Below are positions 367-30,286 of a stretch of 30,556 nucleotides of DNA, one piece after another. The notes beneath the pieces are model-generated. The model was not told the origin of the DNA. It did no database searches and saw only the letters and a list, made by a program, of their open reading frames with translations. The position numbers and the translations under genes were made by a program. Each line of letters starts with the position of its first letter. Position 1 is the first letter of the stretch. Source of the stretch: a virus (Duplodnaviria; Heunggongvirae; Uroviricota; Caudoviricetes); the IMG/VR virus record IMGVR_UViG_3300029886_000071. One strand, 5' to 3'.

Positions 367-723
367 ATGCGTGATATGTATGAAGTAATGGATCGTTGGG
401 GAGCTTGGGCTGCTTCAGACAATAGCGGAGTGGACTGGCAGCCGATAGCGGCTGGTTTCAAGGGACTTTTACCTCATGGCAAAAAGTCACGGATTCAGTG
501 TGATGATGACGAAGGCATCATGATAGACAGTTGTGTGGCTCGGTTGAGAAGGTATAAACCAGAGGAATATGAGCTCATCATCGCCCACTTTGTTATCGGT
601 ATCTCATTACGCACTATTGCGAAGAAGAGAAAATGCTCTGATGGCACAATTAGGAAGGAACTGCAAACTGCAATGGGGTTTGTTGACGGCTGTTTAGCAA
701 TGTTAGCTTATAGTATGGCATAA
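367..723 (+). CDS. Putative late-gene antiterminator (Q-like, small phage-82-type) with C-terminal HTH-like region
   Basis: ORF 352..723; ATG at 367 preceded by GGAGA. Position upstream of the lysis cassette; C-terminal EYELIIAHFVIGISLRTIAKKRKCSDGTIRKELQ resembles a sigma region-4 / LuxR-type helix-turn-helix. Family assignment is from memory. Confidence 0.5.
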   Translation: MRDMYEVMDRWGAWAASDNSGVDWQPIAAGFKGLLPHGKKSRIQCDDDEGIMIDSCVARLRRYKPEEYELIIAHFVIGISLRTIAKKRKCSDGTIRKELQTAMGFVDGCLAMLAYSMA

Positions 724-1917
724 AAAATAAAATAGATTTACTGCCGATTTTTCAAAAAAGACTGGGAACTGTTTATATCCAACGTAAATAAGGCCTCCAT
801 AAAACATGGCTGATGCGAGATATTTAACAGTTCTCATCCTTTTTTTAGCTTTATCAATCAAACCTGTAATGCTACTCTTAATACTATCTGCATTATCTTT
901 GATTTCTTTATTTTCTTCAAACTTTAAATACTTATCGAAAGCGGACTCCACTCGAGAACGTAAGTTGTCGAATGTTTCATTGAATATCTCAATAGAAATG
1001 TAATTGACTTTTTTTATCATCCAAAGTCCTGCGATAATCAATATTGCCTCGGTTGTTTCATTAGCCTTCACTAAGCCACCAGCAGCTATTAATGCACCGG
1101 GAATAGTCAATGCTTTTGTCTGATTAGATGATATGAATTCGTTAATTTTACTCGTGAACTCAAGATTTTTCTCATCGAGTTCGTTAAGAATTTTATTTAC
1201 AGAAAACCTCTTTGTGTAAATCTCATATAGTTCATCATATTTTTTCCTGACGAGTTCAGTAGAGTTAAGCAAGTCAAAGAAATTGAACGTACCATTTGCT
1301 TTAAATACTTCGTTTATGGCTGAGCGTATAACGAGCTTGCGCTCGCTTTTGTGTAAATCATTGATTTTTATTGTGTCGAGAAGCTCCTTTATAATTTCAT
1401 ATTTAAGAGACGAGTTCGATAAGCGATTAATCTCGCTATATTGTAAAAAATGCGTGAGTTCGACTGTATAACTTTTGTCTTCATTGGTGAAAAATAAGAC
1501 AGAGCAGTCACTGTTATGATGATCAGCAATTAATGAAAGGATATCTTTCCACATAAAGAAAATATGGATTTTTTCGATGCTTTCATTCTTAGAAGTAGGG
1601 AGTATTAACGGCGTTCCGATGATATAATTTTTCGGAAGAGCGTTTTGGGTGTTTACTCTAGACCAAAAAGACTCAACATTCTCATAAATTATAGCGTCAT
1701 CCCAAGATGAAGCTTGGCGATCTAGCCAAATTTCATTATTTTCGATGCAGGTTGTTGCCTTTTTATAACCTATAGATTGTAACAGTCTAATTATTTCAGA
1801 ACTATTTACAATAACAATGCTTTCTTCAAGACTTATGACAGTGTAGTAGCCCTCAACTCTGCTTGAGGCTCCGTTAATAATCTGCGCTAATCTTGATAAG
1901 TCATCAGCAATTGTCAT
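703..1917 (-). CDS. Hypothetical protein with C-terminal hydrophobic helices (cargo gene B, downstream gene of a two-gene operon); candidate effector
   Basis: 404-aa ORF, AT-rich; start codon 2 bp downstream of the stop of the 1920..3095 gene on the same strand; hydrophobic segments ALTIPGALIAAGGLV, AILIIAGLWMI and YLASAMFYGGLIYVGY near the C-terminus; K/E-rich predicted helical region. Confidence 0.75.
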   Translation of the reverse strand: MTIADDLSRLAQIINGASSRVEGYYTVISLEESIVIVNSSEIIRLLQSIGYKKATTCIENNEIWLDRQASSWDDAIIYENVESFWSRVNTQNALPKNYIIGTPLILPTSKNESIEKIHIFFMWKDILSLIADHHNSDCSVLFFTNEDKSYTVELTHFLQYSEINRLSNSSLKYEIIKELLDTIKINDLHKSERKLVIRSAINEVFKANGTFNFFDLLNSTELVRKKYDELYEIYTKRFSVNKILNELDEKNLEFTSKINEFISSNQTKALTIPGALIAAGGLVKANETTEAILIIAGLWMIKKVNYISIEIFNETFDNLRSRVESAFDKYLKFEENKEIKDNADSIKSSITGLIDKAKKRMRTVKYLASAMFYGGLIYVGYKQFPVFFEKSAVNLFYFLCHTIS

Positions 1918-1919
1918 TA

Positions 1920-3095
1920 TTAGCTGTCTCTATATCTTTTGAGTTCATCATAATTTGCCTGACTCAATTTTATCACAATTTCGCATTTGTTGTCAGTGAG
2001 AATTACAGGCTTATTTGACTTTTCGTCTCCAATAGCTCCACGCATTATTTTCAACTTAAAATTATTGTCGTTATCTGCCACTTCAATTGTAAGCGCGCTT
2101 TCAGCTGCTTTAGGAGTTGGTTCAAATTGAGGGTCAATCTGGAAACCATTAAGATTAACAAAATCGACAAACGTTCCCTTACATTTGTGTGAATCAGTCA
2201 GGCATGAGTCAATTATTTTTGAAATATCCTCTATCTTAACGGACTTATTTCCGTGTTTATCTTTTGATTTTTTTTCCAGTAAGGATTTAACTTCGTTGTC
2301 AATAGTATCACGCAGTACACGACCGAGTGAGTTTTTACTAGCAAAAATATCTATAGCACTGAATAATTGCTGAATGCTTCTTTTATTGTCCGAATCATGT
2401 CGGCAACCTAATGAGTCTTTGAAAAAATCGCTTTTAGATTTACCTTGCAAGAAATGTACATATGAGTCACCCTTGTTTTCTGGATAACTGGCTTCGAATA
2501 AAGTTAAATCGAACATCGCAGCCTGCCGTAAGGCATCGGTATTAATTGGATTTAATCTTGTTGGGGTCAACTTATCCGAATCAAAGTCATAGGCGCTTTG
2601 TTTATCAACCATTACGATTAGAAGTTTCCCCAAATCCTCTGGTTCGGTAGACTTATAGTGGATGAAAACAACGCTCCCCCCCTGAAGTTGGGCAACTCTC
2701 GATTCGTTATTAGCATTATGTTTAAGCTTCTCTATTATAGCTCTAGATAAATCAATGAATTCATTATTTTTATTAATGTATTTTTTTAGGATCGTAGGAA
2801 TGGATGAAGGGTTGTGATCTGAGTCTAGGAAGTTATGAAATTTGTTTTTTCGGCTAAATTTTTTCTCAATTCTGGTTATGAATTCAGATGTGACTTCATT
2901 TTTTAGATCCCAAACTTCACCTAATCGATAATCAAATGCTCTTGAATCATTTTTTTCAAGATTTGCTGTTACAGCACCAATAGGAAAGTACGATTGTTTG
3001 CCCAGCACTACAACATGAGGCGTGGCACCGCATTTATCGCAAGCTACAGTTGGGTCGTCAAGAACATTGCCACATTCTAAACAAGTTATATCCAT
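1920..3095 (-). CDS. Zinc-ribbon protein with NdpA/YejK-like (NA37) nucleoid-associated domain (cargo gene A, upstream gene of a two-gene operon)
   Basis: 391-aa ORF, AT-rich; N-terminal CLECG...(12 aa)...CDKCG zinc-ribbon motif; motifs GGSVVFIHY and YVHFLQGKSKSDFFKDSLG match my recollection of the YejK/NdpA family ([31 protein letters not shown]). Confidence 0.75.
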   Translation of the reverse strand: MDITCLECGNVLDDPTVACDKCGATPHVVVLGKQSYFPIGAVTANLEKNDSRAFDYRLGEVWDLKNEVTSEFITRIEKKFSRKNKFHNFLDSDHNPSSIPTILKKYINKNNEFIDLSRAIIEKLKHNANNESRVAQLQGGSVVFIHYKSTEPEDLGKLLIVMVDKQSAYDFDSDKLTPTRLNPINTDALRQAAMFDLTLFEASYPENKGDSYVHFLQGKSKSDFFKDSLGCRHDSDNKRSIQQLFSAIDIFASKNSLGRVLRDTIDNEVKSLLEKKSKDKHGNKSVKIEDISKIIDSCLTDSHKCKGTFVDFVNLNGFQIDPQFEPTPKAAESALTIEVADNDNNFKLKIMRGAIGDEKSNKPVILTDNKCEIVIKLSQANYDELKRYRDS

Positions 3096-4569: not shown

Positions 4570-4711
4570 AACGCCCCAGCCAGTCATTCCCGACCCGCTG
4601 ACCTATGGGGCCAGTCTGGATCTGAATGTGAGCCTGCTTTCGGCGCTGGGCCAGTGCAACATCGACAAGGCCAGTATCAGGAAGATAGAAACGTCACGCA
4701 ACTCACAGTAG
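4454..4711 (+). CDS. Rz1: o-spanin lipoprotein (Rz1-like), overlapping the 3' end of Rz in another frame
   Basis: ORF 4388..4711 contains MMIVLQVMCLLPLLTGC lipobox-type signal followed by a proline-rich sequence (PVPAVPLPTSLTTETPQPVIPDP) typical of Rz1. Confidence 0.6.
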   Translation: MMIVLQVMCLLPLLTGCGSTRTVYVPVPAVPLPTSLTTETPQPVIPDPLTYGASLDLNVSLLSALGQCNIDKASIRKIETSRNSQ

Positions 4712-4750
4712 CCATTACAAAGCTCATCTGCGGGTGGGCTTTGTAATGGC

Positions 4751-5050
4751 TTATTCGTAGTTGTCACCAGGGAAGTATTCCTGAAACTTTGATTTTGGGA
4801 GCTGGGTTTTCGCGAAGTTCGCAAGCCTTCCTCTTGTAAGCATGTAGTCACACCCACCTTCTTGTTTGAGAAGGTCACCAGCTAATGTCCGATACACAAC
4901 GTCACTTCGCAAAATTTCAATGGTGGAATTCCTGATGAGAAATGTTTCACACATCGGGCATCTAATTAACCAAGCGGTATCACGGTTCTGCCAGGTCGCA
5001 TCTGAATTGCAAGCCGGGCAGCATTTCTGATCTTCTTGTCCTATGACCAT
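4751..5050 (-). CDS. Small hypothetical zinc-ribbon protein (moron candidate) between lysis and packaging genes
   Basis: ORF 4751..5056 on the minus strand; second ATG (5048..5050) has better RBS spacing; CCPAC...(18 aa)...CPMC motif; opposite strand to all flanking phage genes. Confidence 0.5.
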   Translation of the reverse strand: MVIGQEDQKCCPACNSDATWQNRDTAWLIRCPMCETFLIRNSTIEILRSDVVYRTLAGDLLKQEGGCDYMLTRGRLANFAKTQLPKSKFQEYFPGDNYE

Positions 5051-5129
5051 TGTCATGCTCTCGCATAGTGAAGGAATTTTCAGATTAACTCATTTTCAGA
5101 CGCATCGTAATGGCTTAAGGAAACAATTA

Positions 5130-5480
5130 ATGCCACCACGTACACCAAAAGCCTGCCGCGTTCGCGGTTGCCGCCATACCACAACTGACCCGTCAGGCTA
5201 TTGCGAAAGCCACAAAAGCGAAGGCTGGAAGCAATACAAACCAGGCCTGTCACGTCATCAGCGCGGTTACGGTTCGAAGTGGGATACCATCCGTGAACGT
5301 GTGCTGAAGCGTGACAAAGGCCTGTGTCAGTTATGTCTGCGTTCTGGTGTGGTGCGTGAGGCGAAAACCGTTGACCACATCATCCCTAAAGCGCATGGCG
5401 GCACTGATGCTGACAGTAATCTGCAGAGTCTGTGCTGGCCGTGCCATAAGGCGAAGACGGCCCGTGAACGGTTAAAGTGA
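5130..5480 (+). CDS. HNH homing-type endonuclease associated with the terminase
   Basis: ORF 5043..5480; ATG 5130 has AAGGA RBS; cysteine/histidine motifs (CRVRGCRH...CESH, DHIIPKAHGG, CWPCHKAK); position just upstream of terminase as in HK97-like phages. Confidence 0.8.
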   Translation: MPPRTPKACRVRGCRHTTTDPSGYCESHKSEGWKQYKPGLSRHQRGYGSKWDTIRERVLKRDKGLCQLCLRSGVVREAKTVDHIIPKAHGGTDADSNLQSLCWPCHKAKTARERLK

Positions 5481-5506
5481 TAATAATTCTCAACTGTCTG
5501 AGGGGA

Positions 5507-5567
5507 GGGGCGGGTCAAATCCCTGTGACCTGACGTCTTCCGGACTGCCCGCCCCATCGTTTTTTTA
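5507..5567 (+). other. GC-rich 8-bp inverted repeat (GGGGCGGG ... CCCGCCCC) followed by a T7 run; putative cos-region structure and/or terminator
   Basis: Seen in the HNH-terminase intergenic region, where HK97-type phages carry cos. Confidence 0.3.
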
Positions 5568-5605
5568 TACCCGCGAAAAATGAAATTTAACCAGGAGTGC
5601 CGCAT

Positions 5606-6100
5606 ATGGCTGGAACGGCGGGGCGTTCCGGGCGTCGCCCCAAGCCAACGGCGCGCAAGGCGCTGGCCGGAAACCCCGGCAAGCGAGCCCTGAACAAAGA
5701 TGAACCCGTTTTTACGCCCATCAAAGGTGTTGAGCCACCGGAGTGGTTCGCTGAAGAAGAGCTCCCTCTCGCCACGATCATGTGGCAACTGACAACCAAA
5801 GAACTCTGCGGTCAGGGCCTGCTGTGCGTGACTGACCTCGCAGTGCTTGAGCGGTGGTGCGTAGCCTATGAGTTCTGGCGACGTGCTGTGAAAAATATTG
5901 CCAGACAGGGCAACACCATCACCGGTGCAATGGGCGGCATGGTCAAAAATCCGGAGCTGACCGCCAAAAAAGAACAGGAGTCCGAGATGAGCAGTACGGG
6001 GGCAATGCTCGGACTCGACCCCAGCAGCCGCCAGCGTCTGATTGGCCTGGCGGGGCAGAAGAAAGCCACTAACCCGTTTCTGAAAATTATCGAATCATGA
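5606..6100 (+). CDS. Terminase small subunit
   Basis: ORF 5597..6100; ATG 5606 preceded by AGGAG; immediately upstream of and overlapping the large terminase gene; basic N-terminus. Confidence 0.8.
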
Positions 6101-7830
6101 GCCGGAAATCTTACCCCAACGTAAATGCTGCCAATCAGTATGCCCGGGATGTCGTGCGCGGAAAGATTGTGGCCTGCCAGTTTGTGATTCAGGCCTGCCA
6201 GCGCCATCTTGATGACCTGATGGCGGAAAAAAGTAAGTCGTTTCGTTTCCGCTTCGACAAGGACCTGGCTGAACGGGCCGCCAAATTTATTCAGCTGTTG
6301 CCGCACACCAAGGGTGAGTGGGCATTCAAGAGGATGCCCATCACGCTGGAGCCGTGGCAGCTCTTTGTGATCTGCTGCGCGTTTGGCTGGGTCAATAAAG
6401 GCTCCCGGCTGCGCCGCTTCCGGGAGGTGTATACCGAAATCCCCCGTAAGAACGGCAAATCGGCAATCTCTGCCGGTGTCGCCCTGTATTGTTTTGCCTG
6501 TGATAACGAGTTCGGCGCGGAAGTGTATTCCGGTGCCACGACGGAGAAACAGGCATGGGAAGTCTTTCGTCCGGCAAGACTGATGTGTAAACGCACACCC
6601 ATGCTGACGGAAGCGTTCGGGATTGAGGTTAACGCCTCAAACATGAATCGTCCGGAGGATGGCGCGCGGTTTGAACCGCTGATCGGTAACCCCGGTGATG
6701 GTTCATCACCCCACTGTGCGGTGGTGGATGAATATCACGAGCACGCCACCGATGCGCTTTACACCACGATGCTTACCGGGATGGGGGCGCGACGTCAGCC
6801 ACTGATGTGGGCCATTACTACTGCCGGGTACAACATTGAGGGGCCGTGCTACGACAAGCGGCGGGAAGTTATCGAGATGCTCAACGGGTCGGTACCCAAC
6901 GATGAACTGTTCGGGATCATCTATACCGTTGACGAAGGCGATGACTGGACCGACCCGCAGGTGCTGGAAAAAGCTAACCCGAATATTGGCGTGTCGGTTT
7001 ATCGCGAATTTTTGTTAAGTCAGCAGCAGCGTGCGAAAAATAACGCCCGTCTGGCAAACGTCTTTAAAACAAAACACCTCAATATCTGGGTGTCGGCGCG
7101 TTCGGCGTATTTCAACCTGGTGAGCTGGCAGAGCTGCGAGGATAAATCACTGACCCTTGAGCAGTTCGAGGGGCAGCCGTGCATTCTGGCCTTTGACCTG
7201 GCGCGTAAGCTGGATATGAACAGCATGGCGCGACTTTATACCCGCGAGATTGACGGTAAAACGCATTACTACAGTGTGGCCCCGCGTTTTTGGGTACCGT
7301 ATGACACGGTGTACAGCGTCGAGAAAAATGAAGATCGACGGACAGCCGAACGCTTTCAGAAATGGGTGGAAATGGGCGTTCTGACCGTTACCGATGGTGC
7401 GGAGGTGGATTATCGCTACATCCTCGAGGAGGCCAAAGCGGCGAACAAAATCAGCCCGGTCAGTGAGTCACCCATCGACCCCTTCGGGGCGACCGGGTTG
7501 TCACATGACCTTGCTGATGAAGACCTGAACCCCATCACTATCATTCAGAACTACACCAACATGTCCGACCCGATGAAAGAGCTGGAAGCGGCAATTGAAT
7601 CGGGGCGCTTTCATCATGATGGCAATTCCATCATGACCTGGTGTATCGGCAACGTGGTCGGCAAAACCATTCCGGGTAACGATGATGTGGTGAAGCCCGT
7701 CAAAGAGCAGGCGGAAAACAAAATCGATGGTGCAGTTGCGCTGATTATGGCGGTTGGCAGAGCCATGATGTACGAGAAAGAAGACACGCTGTCTGACCAC
7801 ATTGAGTCCTATGGGATCCGCTCGCTTTAA
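6097..7830 (+). CDS. Terminase large subunit
   Basis: 577-aa ORF; P-loop-like PRKNGKS; acidic DEYHEH motif; start overlaps the small-subunit stop (ATGA). Confidence 0.9.
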
Positions 7831-12096: not shown

Positions 12097-12577
12097 TTTT
12101 CAGCAGCCCGCGGAGATACGCTTTAACCGCGCCCGTGTCCGGCGGGCGTTTGTCACGATTGGTCAGCGTCATATGCGTGATGCCCGTCGGCTGGTGATGC
12201 GCCGTGCGCGGTCGGCACCGGGTGAAAACCCCGGTTATCAGACCGGACGCCTGGCTCGTTCGATTGGTTACATGGTACCCAGAGCCAGTAAACATCGCCC
12301 TGGTTTTATGGCACGTATAGCCCCTAACCAGCGTAATGGAGAGGGAAACCGCCGTATCACCGGTGATTTTTATCCGGCTTTTTTGTTCTATGGCGTGAGG
12401 CGAGGGGCAAAGCGTCGTCGCAGCAATCATCGTGGTGCATCCGGTGGCAGCGGCTGGCGACTGGCTCCACGTAATAACTTCATGGTGGAAACTCTTGAAA
12501 AGAACCGCAGCTGGACACGCTATTTTCTGGCGCGGGAATTGCGTAAATCACTGAAGCCGGAGCGACGACACAGATGA
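12071..12577 (+). CDS. HK97 gp10-like neck / tail-completion protein
   Basis: 168-aa basic ORF in the head-tail joining block; assignment by position and size. Confidence 0.5.
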   Translation: MTTSFLHVDFQQPAEIRFNRARVRRAFVTIGQRHMRDARRLVMRRARSAPGENPGYQTGRLARSIGYMVPRASKHRPGFMARIAPNQRNGEGNRRITGDFYPAFLFYGVRRGAKRRRSNHRGASGGSGWRLAPRNNFMVETLEKNRSWTRYFLARELRKSLKPERRHR

Positions 12578-15567: not shown

Positions 15568-17395
15568 ATTTGAGCTTAAGGCGTTGATCACCGGTGTCGA
15601 CAGGCTTTCTCCCGCGCTGTCGAAAATGCAAAAGAAAATCCGGGGATTTAAACGCCAGGCGGAAGAAGCGTCACAGGGTGGGCTGGCGCTTGGTGGCGGA
15701 CTGGCTGCGGGTCTGACGCTTTCCCTGAAATCTTATGCCGATCAGGAAAACGCCGCCACCGGGCTGAAAGTCGCCATGATGGATGCGAACGGCGAGGTTG
15801 GAAAGAGCTTTCAGGACATCAATAAACTGGCTATTGGTCTGGGTAACCAGCTACCCGGTACAACGGCTGATTTCCAGAACATGATGCAGATGCTGGTGCG
15901 TCAGGGGATCCCGGCAGAAAACATTCTGGGTGGTGTGGGTAAAGCGACAGCTTATCTTGCGGTACAACTGAAAAAAACACCGGAAGCGGCTGCTGAGTTT
16001 GCTGCAAAGATGCAGGATGCTACCGGAACGGCGTCAGAAGACATGATGGGGCTGTTCGACACTATCCAGAAGGCGTTTTATCTGGGCGTTGACGATACCA
16101 ACATGTTGTCCTTCTTCACTAAAACCAGTTCTGTTCTGAAGATGGTGAACAAGGACGGTCTTCAGGCTGCACAGAGCCTTGCCCCCATCAGCGTCATGAT
16201 GGATCAGATGGGGATGAACGGGGAGTCGGCAGGTAATGCCCTGCGAAAAGTTATCCAGTCCGGATTAAGCGTTAAGAAAATCAGGGACGTCAATAAAGTC
16301 ATGGCCCGCCAGAAACTCGGGGTACAGCTCGATTTTACTGACGGCAAAGGAAGTTTTGGCGGTCTTGATAACATGTTCAGGCAACTGGCAAAGCTGCGAA
16401 AACTGACCGACGTTAAGCGAACAGGTGTACTTAAGGCAATATTTGGTGATGATGCCGAAACCCTTCAGGTGGTCAATGCACTAATCGATAAAGGAAAGGA
16501 TGGCTACGATCAGATCCAGCAGAAGATGAATAAACAGGCCAGCCTGAATAAACGTGTTCAGGCCCAGCTTGGTACGCTGTCCAACCTGTGGGAGGCAATG
16601 ACGGGGACCGCAACTAACGGCCTTGCGGCTATTGGCGGCGCATTTTCTGGTGACGCTAAAAATATCACGCAATGGCTGGGGGAGTTGGGGGAAAAATTCA
16701 CGAAGTTTGCGGATGAAAATCCCCGGGTTATTCGCGGCGTCGTCGGGCTTGCTGCCGGTCTTGCGATTCTGAAACTGGGATTGATGGGCGTTGGCGGTGC
16801 CATCAGTATTGTCAGCAGGATCATGTCGATGACGCCGATTGGCATGATTGCGACGGCGATAGCCCTGGCTGCGGGATTAATTATCACTAACTGGGATGCT
16901 GTCGGACCTTATTTTAAGAAACTCTGGGAAACCATTGGTCCTTATTTTGAGGCTGGCCGGGAACTCCTTAAGAAAGTTTTTGCCTGGTCGCCGCTGGGGA
17001 TGGTGATCAATAACTGGGGGCCGGTTGTTAAGTGGTTTCAGGATATGTGGGACAAGCTGAAGCCAATTATTGAGTGGTTTACCGACAGTTACGGTTACAC
17101 GGTCGATGCCATTAACTCTGCGCAGTGGGGCGCGGGTGCTTATGATGCTTATGGGACGGGAATACCGGCGCGGGGATACACACCTTATCCGGCGGTGGAT
17201 CCGGCTCAGTCAAACAACGCCTCCGATGCCACAGGCCCGAATCCCTTCATGATTAACAAAGCTTCTGCGCCAAAAGTTGATGGTGAGATCAAGGTCTCTT
17301 TTGTGAATTCGCCTCCGGGTATGCGGGTTATGGAAACGCGATCCAGCGGTTTTGATGTCAGCCATGATGTTGGCTATACGCGCTTTGGCAGGTAA
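15560..17395 (+). CDS. Tail tape measure protein
   Basis: 611-aa ORF following the chaperone pair; Ala/Gly-rich hydrophobic stretches. Confidence 0.85.
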   Translation: MAEFELKALITGVDRLSPALSKMQKKIRGFKRQAEEASQGGLALGGGLAAGLTLSLKSYADQENAATGLKVAMMDANGEVGKSFQDINKLAIGLGNQLPGTTADFQNMMQMLVRQGIPAENILGGVGKATAYLAVQLKKTPEAAAEFAAKMQDATGTASEDMMGLFDTIQKAFYLGVDDTNMLSFFTKTSSVLKMVNKDGLQAAQSLAPISVMMDQMGMNGESAGNALRKVIQSGLSVKKIRDVNKVMARQKLGVQLDFTDGKGSFGGLDNMFRQLAKLRKLTDVKRTGVLKAIFGDDAETLQVVNALIDKGKDGYDQIQQKMNKQASLNKRVQAQLGTLSNLWEAMTGTATNGLAAIGGAFSGDAKNITQWLGELGEKFTKFADENPRVIRGVVGLAAGLAILKLGLMGVGGAISIVSRIMSMTPIGMIATAIALAAGLIITNWDAVGPYFKKLWETIGPYFEAGRELLKKVFAWSPLGMVINNWGPVVKWFQDMWDKLKPIIEWFTDSYGYTVDAINSAQWGAGAYDAYGTGIPARGYTPYPAVDPAQSNNASDATGPNPFMINKASAPKVDGEIKVSFVNSPPGMRVMETRSSGFDVSHDVGYTRFGR

Positions 17396-17455
17396 TGAAA
17401 AATTAATCTGTTAATGAGTCCCACTCCGGTGGGATTTTTTATGTACGGAGTTTAT

Positions 17456-22456: not shown

Positions 22457-23236
22457 ATGCATCGTATAGACACGAAAACCGCGCAGAAGGATAAGTTCGG
22501 CGCGGGTAAGAACGGTTTTACCCGTGGTAACCCCCAGACCGGCACACCTGCCACCGATCTGGATGATGACTACTTTGACATGTTGCAGGAAGAACTTTGT
22601 AGCGTGGTGGAGGCCTCCGGTGCCAGCCTGGAGAAGGAGCGGCACGACCAGTTGCTTACCGCGCTTCGTGCGCTGCTGTTAAGCCGCAAGAATCCGTTTG
22701 GTGATATCAAATCGGATGGCACGGTGAAAACGGCTCTCGAAAACCTTGGTTTGGGAGATGGCTCGGGGCGTTACAGCAAAACTGTCGTTTTTTCATCGTC
22801 GGGTTCATATACGTGGCCAGCTGACGTAAAACGAATTGACGTTATTCTGACTGCGGGGGGCGGCGGTGGCGGTGGATGTAACGCGGAGAACGCAAATCAG
22901 ACATTTTCAGGGGCTGGCGGAGGAGCCGGAGGTACTGTTTTTGCCACTATTTATGCGACAGACAACGATGCCGGGCCAGGGACCTATACAGTGACAATTG
23001 GTAGCGGTGGTAGTGGTGCCAATGGGCCAGGGTCTGGAAATAATGGCGGTCATAGTTCGTTCATGACATTAACTGCGCTCGGCGGCCAGGGTGGGCAATG
23101 GGGCGGCGCTACAAATACCGCTGGCGGGCTCGGTGGTTCAGGCTCTGGCGGTTATAAAACTGAACAAGGCGGAGACGGTTCAGACGGACAGGCGGGCCAG
23201 GCGCTATTAGTAGGCAATGGGGCATCTGAGCGGTAA
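22457..23236 (+). CDS. Glycine-rich tail fibre protein, apparently interrupted by a frameshift near its 3' end
   Basis: 259-aa ORF with runs [21 protein letters not shown]; Gly-rich reading frame continues in the +1 frame to 23354. Confidence 0.7.
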
Positions 23237-23354
23237 TCCTGGAGTTTGCTCTGGCTCCGGCGGCGGGGGTGCATACGATAATAGCTATTCACACACGTCA
23301 GGACGTGGCGGGCACGGAGCTAATGGCGTGCTGGTAATTCGGGAGTACATGTAA
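23217..23354 (+). other. Probable C-terminal continuation of the tail fibre ORF in the +1 frame
   Basis: Frame open from 23214 to TAA at 23352..23354 encoding ...[40 protein letters not shown]; ends 1 nt before the tfa start. Confidence 0.4.
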
Positions 23355-23759
23355 ATGAATGATGTTTATGCAGTTGTTGATAATAACGTTGTTATTAATG
23401 TCATTATCTGGGACGGAATTTCTGAATGGAAACCAGAGGCTGGTAATTTAGTTCCGTTAAACGGCGATGCTGGCATCGGTTGGTCATATTCAGACGGAGT
23501 ATTTACCGCGCCACCTCCCCCAGAACGCTCTCACAACGCGTTAGTTGCGGAGGCTGAGCTGCAGAAATCAGCACTACTGACCGTAGCAAATAACGCAATA
23601 GCACCGCTGCAGGATGCCGTTGATTTGGAAATGGCGACAGACGATGAACAGACGTTACTGCTGGCGTGGAAAAAATACAGGGTACTGCTGAACCGTGTTG
23701 ATACCTCAGCGGCACCCGAAATAGAGTGGCCTACGCAACCGGGGGAGCGGGCCAGTTGA
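23355..23759 (+). CDS. Tail fibre assembly chaperone (Tfa-like C-terminal domain)
   Basis: 134-aa ORF; C-terminus [45 protein letters not shown] matches the conserved lambda/Mu Tfa C-terminal motif. Confidence 0.8.
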
Positions 23760-23880
23760 TATCAGGCGCAGGGGCAGCATCAACTGCTGTCACTGCGTCG
23801 ATGTAGTCGAGTACCGCATTCAGCCGCCTTTTTTCATCATCAGTCAGTTTGCGGCCTACACCTCTCCGTTGACATCTTTG
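23741..23880 (-). pseudogene. Inverted 3' remnant of a second tfa-like gene (no start codon)
   Basis: Minus-strand frame encodes ...[40 protein letters not shown]-stop, a Tfa-type C-terminus, convergent with and overlapping the intact tfa 3' end; frame closed by a stop upstream. Confidence 0.4.
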
Positions 23881-24103
23881 TTATATGGTACAACTGCGCA
23901 GAGGCCTGTCTCTCCAATTGTGCCAGTTGAATACTACGATACAACGCTAGGTCTTCCAATATGGTATAACGTCACAGCATCATCATGGCAGAGAGCAGAT
24001 GGTACTAATACTTAGACTTTAAATTTATTTTCGTTTATTAATCATTGAAGTAAAACAAATTATTAGGCGAAAATGTAGCGAATTTATGTACTTATACATG
24101 TTA

Positions 24104-24144
24104 CCCTGAAGGAGAATTCTTTTAATAAACCTTCTCCTTCAGGG
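24104..24144. terminator. 13-bp perfect inverted repeat hairpin between the tail module and gtrC-like gene; putative terminator for the convergent transcripts
   Basis: CCCTGAAGGAGAA ... TTCTCCTTCAGGG with about 15-nt loop, immediately 3' of the gtrC-like stop. Confidence 0.35.
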
Positions 24145-24152
24145 GCAAATAA

Positions 24153-25610
24153 TTATTTGACGTAAATGTGGTTTCTGTATTTGACAAAAATCACATCACA
24201 CACGCTTTCAATATCTTCAGGTTGACCATAAATTTTCTTCACAATATTCAATTGTTCTTTATTCTCAAGAATAAAGAAATTATTTCCTTTGTTATACCAT
24301 TCGCTATTTGTAAGCCAGTTATCTCTTTTTATTTCATTGTTATTAAAAAGTATATTTGCTATTTTTATGTCTCCATTCACACCAACAGAGTTAGTAAATG
24401 TGAAAGGGGCATATCCATAATTTGCTTTGTGCTCGTTGATTTTTTCTCTAATACATGACATCTGATTGTATCTATTATCAGTGGAGCCATTAATATTTAT
24501 TGTTTTAATTCCTGATATTATACCCAAAAAAGCTATTAATAAAATAATGCTTTTTTTATTAAATTTAGATCTTGACAAAAGAATTACTGCCATAATGAAG
24601 ACGGGAACAAGGTATCTTATTGTCCATATATTTCTTGGGAGGTTACTACCAATATAAGCAGATGTCATGATTAAAATAGACAATGACAAACATATATCAA
24701 TAACGCTTCTGTTTTTAAAAAGATTTCTGAAAGTGAAGTAAATTAATGCAACAACACCAGCAAAGCGTATTGCTTTAGATAATAGATGCAGTGATGGTGT
24801 TATTTGCTCACCAAATATGTTTGCATTAAAAAACAATAAAGTTCCGCTTACTGCAGTATTTATATTAACTAAAATATTGTCATACTCAACAATCTTTACA
24901 TCTGTTAGTCCTGGCAATGTAAAGCTTCCAAGGTTTAAAAACAAAAAACCGATCGCCTTGGAAATTAAATATGAAGAAAACAATCCAGCCATTATAATAA
25001 GGTATTTCTTTTTTCTTTCCTTGTGCAACAAAAATATTGCTGCTAATGTTAGCGGTGCAACGTATATATAGACTGAGATATTATCGCTAAAAATAGCCAT
25101 AGAGGATAGTATGGTTGAAAAGTATACAAATAATATATTTTCTGTTTTAATATACTTTTCTGTAAATATTAAGCATCCAATGATAAATATGTATGTACCC
25201 ATGTGAATGCACGCTGAAAGCATTGATGTAACAGCCATGTCAGCAGGGAAAACAAAGTAGAATATAATTAGCGCTAATGCTAATGATTTATTTGTAGACA
25301 GCCTGTATATCAAAAATATCACAGTAGCATACATCGCTGGTGGTATTATATATGCAAGCTCACTGCTGTAGCCAAATAATATAGAGGCGATCGCATAAAA
25401 AGATACTTCTGTAAAGTAAAAAGGAACCGTGGATAGCATCCATCCATGAAGTAAGTAATTACCTTCTGACATATCCTTACCAAGCAAAAGCACTGTTGCC
25501 GCATCTGTATTTGGTGGGAATATGTTTAAGCTGGCAAAGTGATATAGCATAAACAATGACGCAAATAATAAAATCACGAATATAAATTTAATTTGTTTTT
25601 TGAAAATCAT
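24153..25610 (-). CDS. GtrC-like serotype-specific O-antigen glucosyltransferase (polytopic membrane protein)
   Basis: 485-aa very AT-rich ORF with many hydrophobic helices; third gene of the operon after gtrA and gtrB with 1-nt overlap with gtrB. Confidence 0.7.
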   Translation of the reverse strand: MIFKKQIKFIFVILLFASLFMLYHFASLNIFPPNTDAATVLLLGKDMSEGNYLLHGWMLSTVPFYFTEVSFYAIASILFGYSSELAYIIPPAMYATVIFLIYRLSTNKSLALALIIFYFVFPADMAVTSMLSACIHMGTYIFIIGCLIFTEKYIKTENILFVYFSTILSSMAIFSDNISVYIYVAPLTLAAIFLLHKERKKKYLIIMAGLFSSYLISKAIGFLFLNLGSFTLPGLTDVKIVEYDNILVNINTAVSGTLLFFNANIFGEQITPSLHLLSKAIRFAGVVALIYFTFRNLFKNRSVIDICLSLSILIMTSAYIGSNLPRNIWTIRYLVPVFIMAVILLSRSKFNKKSIILLIAFLGIISGIKTININGSTDNRYNQMSCIREKINEHKANYGYAPFTFTNSVGVNGDIKIANILFNNNEIKRDNWLTNSEWYNKGNNFFILENKEQLNIVKKIYGQPEDIESVCDVIFVKYRNHIYVK

Positions 25611-26527
25611 TATTTATTACCCTTTAATATATACTTTGGACGCTGCTTAACCTCAACGTAGATACGCCCTATGTACTCACCTAGCACTCCAATCCCAATT
25701 AACTGGATGCCGCCAAGAAATAATATTGATACAAGAATTGAAGGGTATCCAGGTACATTATTACCAAAAATTAATTTATCAATTATCATCCATGAACCGT
25801 ATGTAAATGATATACATGCAATAAATAACCCAATATAGGTCCACATGCGAAGCGGGAATGTTGAGAAGCTAGTGATCCCTTCCAGCGCCAAGTTCCATAG
25901 CTTCCATCCATTGAACTTTGTGCTTCCTGCAACGCGTTCTGCTCGCGCATATTCTACGACATCGGTTCGACCACCAACCCAGCTCAGCACACCCTTCATA
26001 AACAGGTTTCGTTCTGGCATGAGCTTAATATTTTCTACTACTTCGCGAGACATGAGCCGGAAGTCGCCAACATTCTCTTCTATCTGAGGGTTGCTGATTT
26101 TGTTATGAAGTTTATAGAACCACTCAGCAGATTTACGCTTCAGCCTGCTGTCAGTGGAGCGGTCAGAGCGTTTAGCCAGAACCATATCTGCACCGGCCTG
26201 CCATTTCTCTATCAAGTGAGGAATAACTTCGATAGGGTCTTGCAGATCAACGTCAATCGGGATAATTGCCTCCCCGGTAGCATGGTCCAGACCTGCGAAC
26301 AGGGCGGGTTCTTTGCCGAAGTTACGTGTGAACGACAGCGAAACCACAAGCGGGTCGGCAACAGCGAGCTCGTTGATTATTGATTCTGTAGCGTCTTTGC
26401 TGCCATCGTTTATGAAGACTATCTCGACTTCATGCTGCTGAAGCCCTTCAAATTCGCGCACAGTTTTATAAAAAATAGGTATCGTGGCCTCTTCGTTAAA
26501 GACCGGAACGACTAAAGAAATTTTCAT
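25610..26527 (-). CDS. gtrB: Bactoprenol glucosyltransferase GtrB
   Basis: 305-aa ORF; N-terminal GT2 domain ([11 protein letters not shown]...INDGSKD...) and C-terminal TM helices; 4-nt overlap with gtrA. Confidence 0.9.
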
Positions 26528-26886
26528 TTCGCATCCCTAAAGACAATGAACTTTGAATAGACGAAACCGCACACCAGGCTGATGGCGGAGAAGGTGACAA
26601 GAGTTATCATCGGGGGAAGTGCGCATCTATCAGCAGCCCATCCAACAGTAGCACTGAGTGTTCCCATGAACCCGACATATAACATGTAGCGCATCGTTGT
26701 AGTTGATGCTTTGAATGTGAATTTTGCATTCGCGAAGAAGCTAAAACTCACAGCCACAACGAAACCTGCGAAGTTTGCCAGAGCCTGATTGGTATGCGCG
26801 GCATAGATACATACACCAAAAACCACCCAGTGTATAAGTGTGTTCAGCACACCAATCGAGGTGTACCTTGCAAATATATTTAACAT
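26524..26886 (-). CDS. gtrA: GtrA flippase-like small membrane protein
   Basis: 120-aa four-helix hydrophobic ORF; sequence closely matches my recollection of K-12 YfdG (GtrA family); first gene of the operon next to attR. Confidence 0.9.
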
Positions 26887-27047
26887 TTATTTAATCAATG
26901 AGTTCTGAAAGGTATGAAGTCTATCATCCAAGTCTCAATCGATCGATACTTGCGGTAGTTGATGAGGAAAACTCTGGTACACAAAGCTTTGCACTGGACT
27001 GCAAGGTGTTGTGCTTCTCTGGAGTGCGATATGTTTGATGACAAAAA

Positions 27048-27084
27048 ATTAGCGCAAGAGGACAAAAAATCACCTTGCGCTAAT
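27048..27084. other. 11-bp perfect inverted repeat hairpin at the inner edge of the attachment-site arm
   Basis: ATTAGCGCAAG ... CTTGCGCTAAT with 15-nt A-rich loop. Confidence 0.3.
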
Positions 27085-27092
27085 GCTCTGTC

Positions 27093-27244
27093 TCAGGTCA
27101 CTAATACCATCTAAGTAGTTGATTCATAGTGACTGGATATGTTGTGTTTTGTAGTATCATGCAGTCTATTTTTTAGACTAAATGTATTTTAACACATTGA
27201 TATTATTGGCTTTTGCTGTTTCGCGTTCAGCTTTTTTATACTAA
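27093..27244 (+). mobile_element. Lambda-type attR: phage P-arm (arm-type Int sites, IHF/Xis region) plus 15-bp core
   Basis: AGGTCACTAATACCATCTAAGTAGTTGATTCATAGTGACTG... through GTTCAGCTTTTTTATACTAA closely follows the lambda attP P-arm as I recall it; followed by bacterial B' arm CTTGAGCGAAACGGGAAGG. Confidence 0.8.
27230..27244 (+). other. 15-bp lambda att core (overlap region) GCTTTTTTATACTAA
   Basis: Exact match to the canonical lambda core sequence. Confidence 0.85.
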
Positions 27245-27303
27245 CTTGAGCGAAACGGGAAGGTAAAAAGACAAAAAGTTGTTTTTAATACCTTTAAGTG
27301 ATA

Positions 27304-27326
27304 CCAGATGGCATAGCGCCATCTGG
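27304..27326 (-). terminator. Hairpin downstream of ybhB (putative ybhB terminator)
   Basis: CCAGATGGC-ATAGC-GCCATCTGG perfect 9-bp stem just 3' of the ybhB stop on the minus strand. Confidence 0.4.
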
Positions 27327-27334
27327 CAGAGTGA

Positions 27335-27811
27335 TTAACTAAACATCGCAGTAATCGAGGCGCTTGCCAGAGAATGGAAATGGACGTTAAACCCGACCAT
27401 CGCGCCGCTGGCACCTTCATCGACATCAATACGTTCTACATCCAGCGCGTGAACGGTAAAAATGTAGCGATGGGTTTCGCCTTTCGGCGGCGCTGCACCA
27501 TCGTACCCGGTTTTACCAAAGTCGGTACGCGTCTGCAAAACGCCGTCTGGCATTGCTACCAGACCAGAGCCAAACCCTTGCGGTAATACGCGGGTATCAG
27601 CGGGTAAATTAACAACTACCCAGTGCCACCAGCCGGAGCCGGTTGGCGCATCCGGGTCGTAGCAGGTGACAACAAAACTTTTCGTTCCCGCAGGAACATC
27701 ATCCCACGCCAGATGCGGTGAAACATTATCGCCATCGTAACCCATGCCGTTAAAGACATGACGATGTGGCAACTTATCGCCATCGCGCAGATCATTACTG
27801 ATGAGTTTCAT
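27335..27811 (-). CDS. ybhB: YbhB, PEBP-family (kinase inhibitor-like) protein
   Basis: 158-aa ORF matching E. coli YbhB as I recall it; chromosomal position next to bioA. Confidence 0.9.
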   Translation of the reverse strand: MKLISNDLRDGDKLPHRHVFNGMGYDGDNVSPHLAWDDVPAGTKSFVVTCYDPDAPTGSGWWHWVVVNLPADTRVLPQGFGSGLVAMPDGVLQTRTDFGKTGYDGAAPPKGETHRYIFTVHALDVERIDVDEGASGAMVGFNVHFHSLASASITAMFS

Positions 27812-27869
27812 GAACCCTCCTTTCTAGTTTGCAGAAAGTGTAGCCAGAAACCCTCACGCTGACTTCCCG

Positions 27870-29159
27870 TTATTGGCAAAAAAATGTTTCATCCTGCACC
27901 GCACGATTAACCGCTGCGGTCAGACGCTGCAACTGTTGCGGGAGAATAATATAGGGCGGCATCAGGTAAATCAGTTTGCCAAAAGGCCGGATCCAGACAC
28001 CCTGTTCGACAAAGAATTTTTGCAGCGCTGCCATATTCACCGGACGAGTGGTTTCGACCACGCCAATGGCCCCTAGCACGCGCACATCGGCAACCATTTT
28101 GGCATCACGGGCTGGTGCCAGTTGCTCGCGCAGTTGTACTTCAATAGCCACCACCTGCTGCTGCCAGTCGCCAGATTCGAGAATCGCCAGGCTGGCGTTT
28201 GCTGCCGCGCAGGCTAGCGGATTGCCCATAAAAGTTGGCCCATGCATAAAGCAACCGGCTTCGCCGTTACTGATGGTTTCCGCAACCTCGCGCGTGGTGA
28301 GTGTGGCGGAAAGGGTCATTGTACCGCCGGTTAAGGCTTTACCGAGGCACAAAATGTCCGGCGCGATATCTGCATGTTCACAGGCAAACAGTTTGCCAGT
28401 ACGACCAAATCCGGTGGCGATCTCGTCGGCAATCAGCAAGATACCTTCGCGATCGCACATTTTGCGGATTCGTTTTAACCATTCCGGATGGTAGATGCGC
28501 ATCCCGCCTGCGCCCTGGACAATCGGTTCAATGATCACCGCCGCGATTTCATGACGATGCGCCGCCATCAGGCGGGCAAAGCCCACCATATCGCGCTCAT
28601 CCCATTCACCATCCATGCGGCTTTGCGGGGCGGGAGCAAACAAGTTTTCTGGCAGATAGCCTTTCCACAGACTGTGCATTGAGTTATCCGGATCGCACAC
28701 CGACATCGCGCCAAAGGTATCGCCATGATAACCATTGCGGAAGGTCAGAAAACGCTGGCGCGCTTCGCCTTTGGCTTGCCAGTACTGCAACGCCATTTTC
28801 ATCGCCACTTCCACCGCTACGGAACCGGAGTCCGCGAGAAAAACGCATTCCAGCGGTTGCGGCGTCATTGCCACCAGTTTGCGGCACAGCTCAATGGCTG
28901 GCGCATGGGTGATACCGCCAAACATCACATGCGACATGGCATCAATTTGCGACTTCATCGCCGCATTAAGCTGCGGGTGATTGTAACCGTGGATCGCCGC
29001 CCACCAGGACGACATACCGTCAACCAGGCGTCTGCCGTCAGACAAAATTAGCTCGCAACCTTCGGCGCTCGCCACCGGATAAACCGGTAGCGGGGAGGTC
29101 ATGGATGTGTATGGGTGCCAGATATGGCGTTGGTCAAAGGCAAGATCGTCCGTTGTCAT
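27870..29159 (-). CDS. bioA: Adenosylmethionine-8-amino-7-oxononanoate aminotransferase
   Basis: ORF 27870..29270; conserved BioA begins [17 protein letters not shown] at the internal ATG, giving 429 aa; divergent from bioB. Confidence 0.95.
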
Positions 29160-29245
29160 AATCGACTTGTAAACCAAATTGAAAAGATTTAGGTTTACGA
29201 GTCTACACCGAATTAACAACAAAAAACACGTTTTGGAGAAGCCCC
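29160..29245. promoter_or_regulatory. bioA-bioB divergent promoter region with bio operator (BirA binding palindrome)
   Basis: CTTGTAAACCAAATTGAAAAGATTTAGGTTTACGAG imperfect palindrome between the divergent bioA and bioB starts. Confidence 0.7.
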
Positions 29246-30286
29246 ATGGCTCACCGCCCACGCTGGACATTGTCGCAAGTCACAGAATTATTTGAAAAAC
29301 CGTTGCTGGATCTGCTGTTTGAAGCGCAGCAGGTGCATCGTCAGCATTTCGATCCACGTCAGGTGCAGGTCAGCACTTTGCTGTCAATTAAGACCGGAGC
29401 TTGTCCGGAAGATTGCAAATACTGCCCGCAAAGCTCGCGCTACAAAACCGGGCTGGAAGCCGAGCGGTTGATGGAAGTTGAACAGGTGCTGGAGTCGGCG
29501 CGCAAAGCGAAAGCGGCAGGATCGACGCGCTTCTGCATGGGCGCGGCGTGGAAGAATCCCCACGAACGCGATATGCCCTACCTGGAACAAATGGTGCAGG
29601 GAGTAAAAGCGATGGGGCTGGAGGCGTGTATGACGCTGGGTACGTTGAGTGAATCTCAGGCGCAGCGCCTTGCGAATGCCGGGCTGGATTACTACAACCA
29701 CAACCTCGACACCTCGCCGGAGTTTTACGGCAATATCATCACCACACGCACTTATCAGGAACGCCTCGATACGCTGGAAAAAGTGCGCGATGCCGGGATC
29801 AAAGTCTGCTCAGGTGGCATTGTGGGTTTAGGCGAAACGGTAAAAGATCGCGCCGGATTATTACTGCAACTGGCAAACCTGCCGACGCCGCCGGAAAGCG
29901 TGCCAATCAACATGCTCGTGAAGGTGAAAGGTACTCCACTGGCAGATAACGATGATGTCGATGCCTTTGATTTTATTCGCACCATTGCCGTAGCGCGGAT
30001 CATGATGCCGACCTCTTACGTGCGCCTTTCTGCCGGACGCGAGCAGATGAACGAACAGACTCAGGCGATGTGCTTTATGGCCGGGGCTAACTCGATTTTC
30101 TACGGTTGCAAACTGCTAACCACGCCGAATCCGGAAGAAGATAAAGACCTGCAACTGTTCCGCAAACTGGGGCTAAATCCACAGCAAACTGCCGTGCTGG
30201 CAGGGGATAACGAACAACAGCAGCGTCTGGAGCAGGCACTGATGACCCCGGACACTGACGAATATTACAACGCGGCAGCACTATGA
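29246..30286 (+). CDS. bioB: Biotin synthase
   Basis: 346-aa ORF; radical-SAM motif CPEDCKYC; sequence matches E. coli BioB. Confidence 0.95.

Follow-up and report, generated by a model that had tools for sequence, protein, structure and literature searches.

The window, by which we mean the whole stretch of 30,556 nucleotides analysed here, carries an E. coli myovirus prophage that is SfV/SfII-like, bears gtr genes and is integrated beside ybhB-bioA-bioB. Its genes run from a late-gene regulator region through the lysis, head, tail and baseplate genes to the tail fibre gene, the fibre assembly chaperone gene tfa and then gtrC-like, gtrB and gtrA, after which come the host genes ybhB, bioA and bioB. 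The baseplate part follows the Mu-like order gp46, J/gp47, Mu gp48-like (PF10076), fibre and tfa, so that a Mu-like baseplate and fibre arrangement is succeeded by gtrC-gtrB-gtrA at the prophage end. This O-antigen-modification cargo (24153..26886), which adjoins the prophage-host junction, consists of three intact genes on the minus strand, encoding a gtrC-like membrane protein of 485 aa (24153..25610), a GtrB family-2 glycosyltransferase (GT2 PF00535; 25610..26527) and GtrA (PF04138; 26524..26886); the gtr genes are annotated as yfdH and yfdG/GtrA in relatives. At the left end, two intact minus-strand genes are named by NCBIfam as a DS1 anti-phage pair, and PADLOC returned no match for these two genes. 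The contig ends inside the prophage, with the early region outside it.

Within this arrangement, the tail fibre (receptor-binding protein) gene is truncated. Its open reading frame (22457..23236, plus strand) encodes 259 aa and closes with a TAA at 23234-23236, while the +1 frame, bounded upstream by a TAG at 23211-23213, is open over 23214..23351 and closes with a TAA at 23352-23354. The tfa ATG follows directly at 23355, so that the DNA reads TAAATG. Both frames overlap by 21 nt, an interval that includes a GGGG run at 23219-23222, and a second run of six G lies in frame further upstream in the fibre gene (22855..22860, plus strand). All coordinates given in the earlier note for the fibre ORF, the +1 frame, the tfa start and the G runs are correct to the base. 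Downstream, tfa itself (23355..23759, plus strand) is intact, encoding a tail-fibre assembly chaperone of 134 aa (PF02413 Caudo_TAP, E 1e-32; PHROG 188) whose translation is identical to that of E. coli SCU-482; as read from the sequence, it has its own Shine-Dalgarno, GGGAG, at 23341-23345. An ATG at 23217 in the +1 frame could open a C-terminal peptide of 45 aa, with no recognisable Shine-Dalgarno upstream of it.

An open +1 frame of 47 codons could plausibly arise by chance alone, and it is by its content, not its openness, that this frame is recognised as genuine and non-random. The codons at 23226..23351 specify 42 residues, every one identical to residues 269-310 of an intact homologue of 310 aa, and the DNA from 23226 to 23948 is 100% identical to SCU-482. 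What the +1 frame contains is the fibre gene's own 3' end, displaced from its frame, stranded at 23226..23354 on the plus strand and comprising the 42 codons for L269-M310 of the intact protein plus the TAA. Aligned to intact homologues, the 259-aa product corresponds to residues 1-257 of the 310-aa protein, followed by an out-of-frame E, R and the TAA. The earlier reading of a fibre gene interrupted by a frameshift, with the glycine-rich +1 frame as its true continuation, is thus borne out by these 42 matching residues.

The nature of the lesion is different from what had been proposed. The earlier note placed a single-base indel in the overlap, at the GGGG run, and indeed removal of one base there yields an ORF of 298 aa. 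Alignment of the locus against E. coli SCU-482 and E. coli 042, however, reveals a single gap of 35 bp in the window, the remainder being near-identical. The junction lies at 23225..23227 on the plus strand (23225|23226 or 23226|23227, its placement being ambiguous by one C), and the segment missing from the window is CGAGCTATTGGGGTGGCGGCGGCCGCGCTGGGCAA, with a G+C content of 74%, coding for S258-Q268 plus 2 nt. The ancestral protein therefore has 310 aa and not the 298 aa that had been expected, and a 1-nt correction would still leave out 11-12 conserved residues. A megablast search of 5,426 complete E. coli genomes gave full-length matches to 22457..23760 in 66 of them; among the matches listed, all 40 covered a span of 1339 bp, as against 1304 bp in the window, in two pieces.

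Direct comparison of the breakpoints uncovered imperfect direct repeats of 7 nt, GGGCAtC and GGGCAaC (6 of 7 positions identical), which are 35 bp apart and each immediately precede one breakpoint, so that the lost DNA equals one repeat copy together with the intervening G+C-rich sequence. When repeats were sought from a seed of 6 nt, none that is exact and direct came up at these positions. Endpoints of this kind are what replication slippage between two short repeats usually leaves behind, and we infer slippage as the most likely event. Mechanistically, slippage between GGGCAtC and GGGCAaC would have removed the 35-bp segment; the deletion itself eliminates residues 258-268, including a conserved SxWGGGGR motif, and shifts the frame, ending translation after 259 aa and leaving the last 42 codons unchanged in the +1 frame as far as the tfa start.

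Intact copies of the gene present a uniform picture. Each is one ORF of 933 nt, coding for 310 aa, with its TAA directly followed by the ATG of tfa, and all 22 full-length copies among the fetched loci have 933 nt, with no gaps or stops. The best 120 protein homologues, which represent more than 2000 contigs, are likewise full length without exception, at 310 aa save for one of 307 aa. We considered this shorter homologue as a possible in-frame deletion in a glycine tract and rejected the idea, since it reflects an alternative start call; the 'partial' members of the 90% cluster, taken as candidate carriers of the deletion, proved to be pieces of the intact allele cut off at contig ends, their sequence running on across the region deleted here. 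The comparison with intact homologues that had been suggested thus returns a single ORF up to the tfa start. Further afield, a search of 1.84 billion representatives found 4,745 relatives. The diverse relatives with a tip domain, at 44-69% identity and lengths of 276-1405 aa, all align as far as query residue ~309, which is also the subject's own last residue, and their C-terminus is the equivalent of the ...VIREYM end (residue 309/310). Had the gene naturally ended where the window ORF does, with an independent small ORF behind it, homologues should share that layout; none does, and the diverse relatives all run to the end.

The truncated allele, on the other hand, is recorded once. The exact 259-aa protein is known from one contig only, the JGI/IMG contig of this window, against 180 contigs that carry the same protein in its intact 310-aa form. 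Searches for the exact deletion junction gave 0 matches among IMG/VR, JGI metagenome contigs and GTDB species-representative genomes, whereas 24 IMG/VR contigs hold the intact sequence across the deletion site. Nor did a 60-nt junction query match any of the 5,426 complete E. coli genomes by megablast, with the E-value limit set so that the 30-nt halves of intact copies should fall below it.

To appreciate what the deletion takes away, the architecture of the protein has to be considered. Its first ~100 residues (22457..22760, plus strand) form a conserved StfP / Mu S-like module, predicted to be helical and intact in the window, that is presumed to be the baseplate-docking and trimerisation part. 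Many PHROG tail-fibre families align with residues 1-~110, and there is a weak resemblance in sequence to Mu fibre protein S (5yvq, E 0.011). In the AF2 model of an intact homologue (P0016), helices occupy residues 34-54 and 65-75 and the last strand residues 303-309, with pLDDT mostly above 90 over residues 105-310, the stranded part included. The profile PF21722 (Gly_rich_2) matches residues 114-307 of the intact protein (E 2e-18), covering profile positions 2-224 of 226. In the window ORF the match is confined to residues 114-253 and profile positions 2-134, scoring 62.8 bits against 67.9 bits for the intact homologue (gathering cut-off 24.3). A complete PF21722 domain in one frame up to the C-terminus is not found in the window gene, which makes it a broken member of the family.

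Structural comparison of the same model by Foldseek gave the fibre of cyanophage Pam3 as the best match (7ypx, E 7.8e-12, probability 1.00; 7yfw, E 4.5e-10), other matches being Bxb1 tail-tip proteins and the TNF-like plus glycine-rich module of LTK/ALK (E 6e-4 to 1e-2). In the Pam3 fibre, a docking domain of helices is followed by a TNF-like domain and, at the distal end, by a glycine-rich domain that binds the receptor. Loops L1 and L6, the first and the last of this distal domain, have the motif GGGGxGG and make up its core; a Tfa-like chaperone grips the distal part of the fibre during folding (PMC9608196). According to the model, the intact protein of our family is organised in the same way as Pam3 gp24, with a helical N-terminal docking module, a TNF-like beta-sandwich and a glycine-rich tip, and the Tfa chaperone encoded downstream assists in its folding. 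Indeed, gp24 and its chaperone gp25 (7YPX, 7YFW; PMC9608196) share with the window both this three-part plan and the position of a Tfa-type chaperone gene downstream. The sequence match to gp24 is weak, extending over residues 103-308 at ~22-23% identity, and the two systems differ in their host (E. coli versus a cyanobacterium), in the StfP / Mu S type of the N-terminal module and in the tip domain, which in the window is cut by the deletion. Pam3 gp24 has been described as resembling T-even gp38 and ALK (PMC9608196). The gp38 adhesin, with its polyglycine-II lattices, is not among the significant Foldseek matches of the intact-homologue model, and the TNF-like plus glycine-rich (TG) ligand-binding domain of ALK/LTK belongs to the same fold class as the fibre tip only as a distant likeness, at 12-15% identity and in unrelated biological contexts.

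Conservation within the family highlights the lost region. An alignment of 22 diverse members shows the motif S-x-W-G-G-G-G-R to be conserved within the deleted segment, and the stranded piece contains the invariant glycines G278, G280, G299 and G302, a GSGGGGA loop and the terminal G-x-G-x-x-G-...-I-x-E strand; deleted and stranded parts together account for the invariant or near-invariant glycines G263, G264, G278, G280, G281, G296, G299 and G302. By analogy with Pam3, the equivalent of L6 lies in the stranded piece. What the truncated product retains, judged from its sequence, is the docking module; ~40% of the tip domain is gone, and with it both the central GSGGGGA loop and the beta-strand that closes the domain. 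With the last core loop and the closing strand lost, the tip should fail to form and the product should not provide a receptor-binding tip, a misfolding suggested by the predicted structure of the homologue and by the Pam3 fibre. Induced particles would then be expected to assemble yet to adsorb poorly or not at all.

The locus also preserves traces of an older mode of variation. This fibre family normally switches by DNA inversion, and the Mu S/U G-segment, the P1 C-segment and the e14 P-segment (StfP) are invertible fibre cassettes of this kind. In the window, a palindromic Gin/Cin/Pin-type crossover-like site (CTCGAAAACC TT GGTTTGGGAGA, 22738..22760, plus strand; core AAACCTTGGTTT at 22741-22752) lies where the conserved N-terminal module gives way to the variable glycine-rich cassette; it presumably belongs with the crossover sites of invertases. 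The exact sequence AAACCNNGGTTT occurs once in the window, at 22741-22752, and a second hit with 1 mismatch at 12226 falls inside structural genes, two matches being within chance expectation. It is at this crossover-like site (22741-22764) that homology to SfV-type fibres stops. The Shigella serotype-converting phages SfV, SfI, SfII and SfIV (orf21, 'short tail fiber') and E. coli relatives have the N-terminal module at 95-97% DNA identity over the first ~300 nt (query 1-302/308 only), and SfV-type phages have in common with the window the Mu-like baseplate gene order and adjacent gtr cargo, but beyond the site SfV, SfI, SfII and SfIV carry a different C-terminal receptor-binding module. Conversely, one fetched locus (L006) has the same cassette joined to a different N-terminus at the site; a 1-nt gap there, considered as a frameshift, turned out to be an alignment artefact at the cassette junction.

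Downstream of tfa and in the opposite orientation lies the fossil C-terminal end of a second tfa' (23731..23856, minus strand; 41 codons), which is common to relatives and is annotated in L001-L003 as a partial tail fiber assembly pseudogene. This fossil is the remnant of a Mu G-segment-like invertible fibre cassette. As in the Mu, P1 and e14 cassettes, a conserved N-terminal part is joined to an exchangeable C-terminal cassette at a palindromic AAACCnnGGTTT-type site, tfa and tfa' converge, and PGAP names the N-terminal part StfP. Unlike them, the window has one site, no invertase gene and a second cassette reduced to the 41-codon fossil. No second, inverted crossover site flanking the cassette was found in the window, and the genes between tfa and the host genes are only gtrC-like, gtrB and gtrA, with no invertase among them; neither was an invertase annotated in L001-L003, and an alternative fibre C-terminus with a full tfa' on the opposite strand was not found beyond the fossil. 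We therefore rejected a functional invertible segment: with one site, no invertase and a fossil second cassette, no inversion switch can operate at the locus, and classical inversion switching of the fibre survives here only as fossils.

The age of the lesion and the quality of the sequence could be judged from close relatives. Compared with SCU-482, the window has 2 substitutions in ~4.5 kb around the lesion, 1 in the 3 kb upstream and 1 in the fibre gene (22708), with 0 in the 723 nt from 23226 to 23948. So few differences imply that the lesion is either very young or an artefact without biological origin. The closest relative of the whole prophage is that of E. coli 2021CK-01784, at 98.6% identity. 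Its alignment with the window is made of one block of 17,388 bp and a following one of 5,821 bp, and these ~23 kb contain no small indel but that at the fibre junction. All 28 CDSs mapped from 2021CK-01784, and the tape measure gene in addition, have start codons, the expected lengths and no internal stops, and of 30 lysis and morphogenesis genes checked only the fibre is broken. The absence of other indels or broken genes indicates that the data are not generally error-prone. Neither is the sequence generally unreliable nor the prophage generally decayed; the earlier idea of a decayed gene in a cryptic prophage is only weakly supported, the other 29 genes being intact.

Taken together, we consider the receptor-binding tail fibre gene of the window to be a loss-of-function allele that arose very recently and is private to this E. 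coli prophage, a reading to which we assign a probability of about 70%. Its main rival is an artefact of assembly, amplification or sequencing, in which the organism would hold the intact 310-aa gene and the 35 bp would have been lost in library preparation or assembly, for instance by polymerase slippage on the stretch of 74% G+C between the short repeats. This is a serious alternative, though less likely than a real deletion: no second copy of the allele turned up in any collection searched, the lost segment is rich in G+C and flanked by short direct repeats, the 3' end is stranded without further decay, and a JGI/IMG contig that ends inside a prophage is typical of a draft or metagenome assembly. 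What lowers its standing is the lack of any other indel over 23 kb against the 98.6%-identical relative, or of any other broken gene, in combination with the direct-repeat signature. In addition, a loss of 35 bp is untypical of base-calling or homopolymer error, and repeats of 7 nt are far below assembler k-mers, so that a collapse of the assembly graph would not be expected.

Biological readings other than plain loss of function fare much worse. A switchable receptor-binding protein, its frame restored by slippage in the GGGG or G6 run or by ribosomal +1/-2 frameshifting within 23214..23234, is suggested by the 21-nt overlap of the frames at a GGGG run, by the G6 run upstream and by the presence of a crossover-like site with a tfa' fossil, but it is the least probable explanation that we considered. 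The two-frame layout occurs in no homologue, leaving nothing conserved to be programmed and putting programmed frameshifting out of the question in practice. Inspected by eye, the stretch 23213..23236 (GGC AAT GGG GCA TCT GAG CGG TAA) shows no X XXY YYZ motif. The phase variation proposed earlier would furthermore require the lost sequence to be regained, and this sequence is unique and non-repetitive and could not be recovered by repeat slippage; even a frame-restored product would be without the SxWGGGGR motif. Runs of four and six G are short for contingency loci, which we count against phase variation. Nor does the G6 run behave as the slippage site it had been suspected to be, for it is interrupted (GGCGGG or GGCTGG) in 14 of the 22 copies, its length differs in none, and it is no slippage hotspot. 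The single crossover-like site and the lack of an invertase gene between tfa and the host junction dispose of inversion as well. Hardly more credible is a truncated fibre that still functions, either on its own, as a stub that alters the host range, or paired with a 45-aa peptide whose translation begins at the ATG at 23217, the two pieces reassembling as a split protein. Here the retention of the docking module and ~60% of the tip domain, the ATG in the +1 frame and the intact Tfa are outweighed by the nature of the missing part, for what is modelled with confidence as a single domain loses invariant glycines along with its core GGGG loop and its closing strand; 11 conserved residues are in neither piece, the ATG is not preceded by a recognisable Shine-Dalgarno, and the uniqueness of the allele gives no sign of selection. 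We regard as equally far-fetched the more speculative proposals that the G+C-rich, glycine-codon-repeat DNA of the fibre-tip family is a recurrent hotspot of slippage deletion, exploited by hosts to disarm prophages yet keep the gtr and DS1 cargo, with the window as a first step of domestication, or that the stub fibre is incorporated and changes the behaviour of the particle.

Returning to the preferred reading of a recent loss-of-function allele, the feature is real in the sequence, correctly located and ordinary: a 35-bp frameshifting deletion in a known type of tail fibre. Prophage pseudogenes that arose from deletions between short direct repeats share the out-of-frame loss equal to the repeat spacing and a downstream coding sequence still recognisable in the other frame, and the only difference in the window is the extreme youth of the lesion. 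The locus does not present a regulatory switch; it presents a loss-of-function mutation of an ordinary kind and very recent date or, possibly, an error of assembly. In terms of annotation, it should be described as a pseudogene, the frameshifted form of a tail fibre of 310 aa with a glycine-rich domain, and neither as two genes nor as a phase-variable locus; beyond annotation its importance is small. The case also carries a caution, as a frame break beside a G run may have another cause than a slip in the homopolymer, and intact homologues reveal the true lesion. If the deletion is real, the prophage would release non-adsorbing particles while its host would still gain O-antigen modification and an anti-phage system, and the window would then represent a textbook first step of prophage decay.

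On its right-hand side, the prophage meets the host chromosome between gtrA, which ends at 26886, and ybhB (27335..27811, minus strand). The junction and the host genes that follow it, ybhB and then bioA and bioB, occupy 26887..30286, and by gene order these neighbours presumably place the prophage near the lambda attachment site. Towards the left end, NCBIfam identified a two-gene DS1 anti-phage pair on the minus strand (703..3095), with the Q antiterminator on one side and the holin on the other. Both genes are intact and exceed their cut-offs (NF053869, 375 bits; NF053868, 451 bits), the second carries a YejK/NA37 nucleoid-associated domain, and neither has a match in PADLOC v2 (2023). The closest whole-prophage relative, L003 from E. 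coli 2021CK-01784, includes an additional insert of ~780 bp (24888..25669 of that locus) in the interval between the tape measure and DNA circularization genes, which encodes a 225-aa hypothetical protein and is missing from the window at 17388..17411.

Downstream of the tail-fibre assembly gene tfa, the cargo varies among relatives, as seen by comparing window 23949..25610 with 4637..6118 of the E. coli locus L001 and 32341..33462 of L003. Between strain SCU-482 and the window, identity breaks off sharply at about 23949. The gtrC-like membrane protein of the window is intact at 485 aa, with no match in Pfam or NCBIfam; its equivalent is broken into two ORFs in SCU-482, the version in E. coli 042 has 491 aa, and 2021CK-01784 carries an acyltransferase and intS at argW in place of the gene.

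The region from the 3' end of tfa to this cargo holds one gene remnant and probably a second. A 41-codon piece of a second tail-fibre assembly gene, tfa' (23731..23856, minus strand; PHROG 3792/188), is convergent with tfa and overlaps its 3' end. Common to the relatives, where PGAP labels it a partial pseudogene, this remnant is the vestige of an invertible cassette. On the plus strand, a 48-aa ORF ending in YYDTTLGLPIWYNVTASSWQRADGTNT (23869..24015) resembles the C-terminus of PHROG 20787 (E 5e-11; 'virion structural protein') and is probably a further gene fragment, stranded between tfa and the gtr cargo. Immediately 3' of the stop of the gtrC-like gene, a perfect 13-nt inverted repeat, CCCTGAAGGAGAA / TTCTCCTTCAGGG, with a 15-nt loop (24104..24144) probably acts as the terminator separating the fibre region from the convergent gtr operon.

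Intact homologues of the fibre gene (L001 3001..3933 and its equivalents in L002 and L003) form one continuous 310-aa ORF, which RefSeq/PGAP divides between a 'partial stfP pseudogene' and a 212-aa 'glycine-rich domain-containing protein'. Many GenBank records name the 310-aa protein 'carbohydrate kinase'; this name and the two-feature split both look like annotation artefacts. The start assigned to the 212-aa feature is a TTG within a palindromic crossover-like site, CTCGAAAACC-TT-GGTTTGGGAGA, which in the window lies inside the fibre ORF and is coding (22738..22760). This palindrome is the exact border between the conserved fibre N-terminus and an exchangeable glycine-rich cassette. In the IMG/VR locus L006 (about 5646..5690), an unrelated fibre N-terminus (...ALSYLGLGDG...) is joined to the same cassette at the palindrome. 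The palindrome looks like a crossover site of the Gin/Cin/Pin type that has been re-employed as a joint for shuffling fibre modules.
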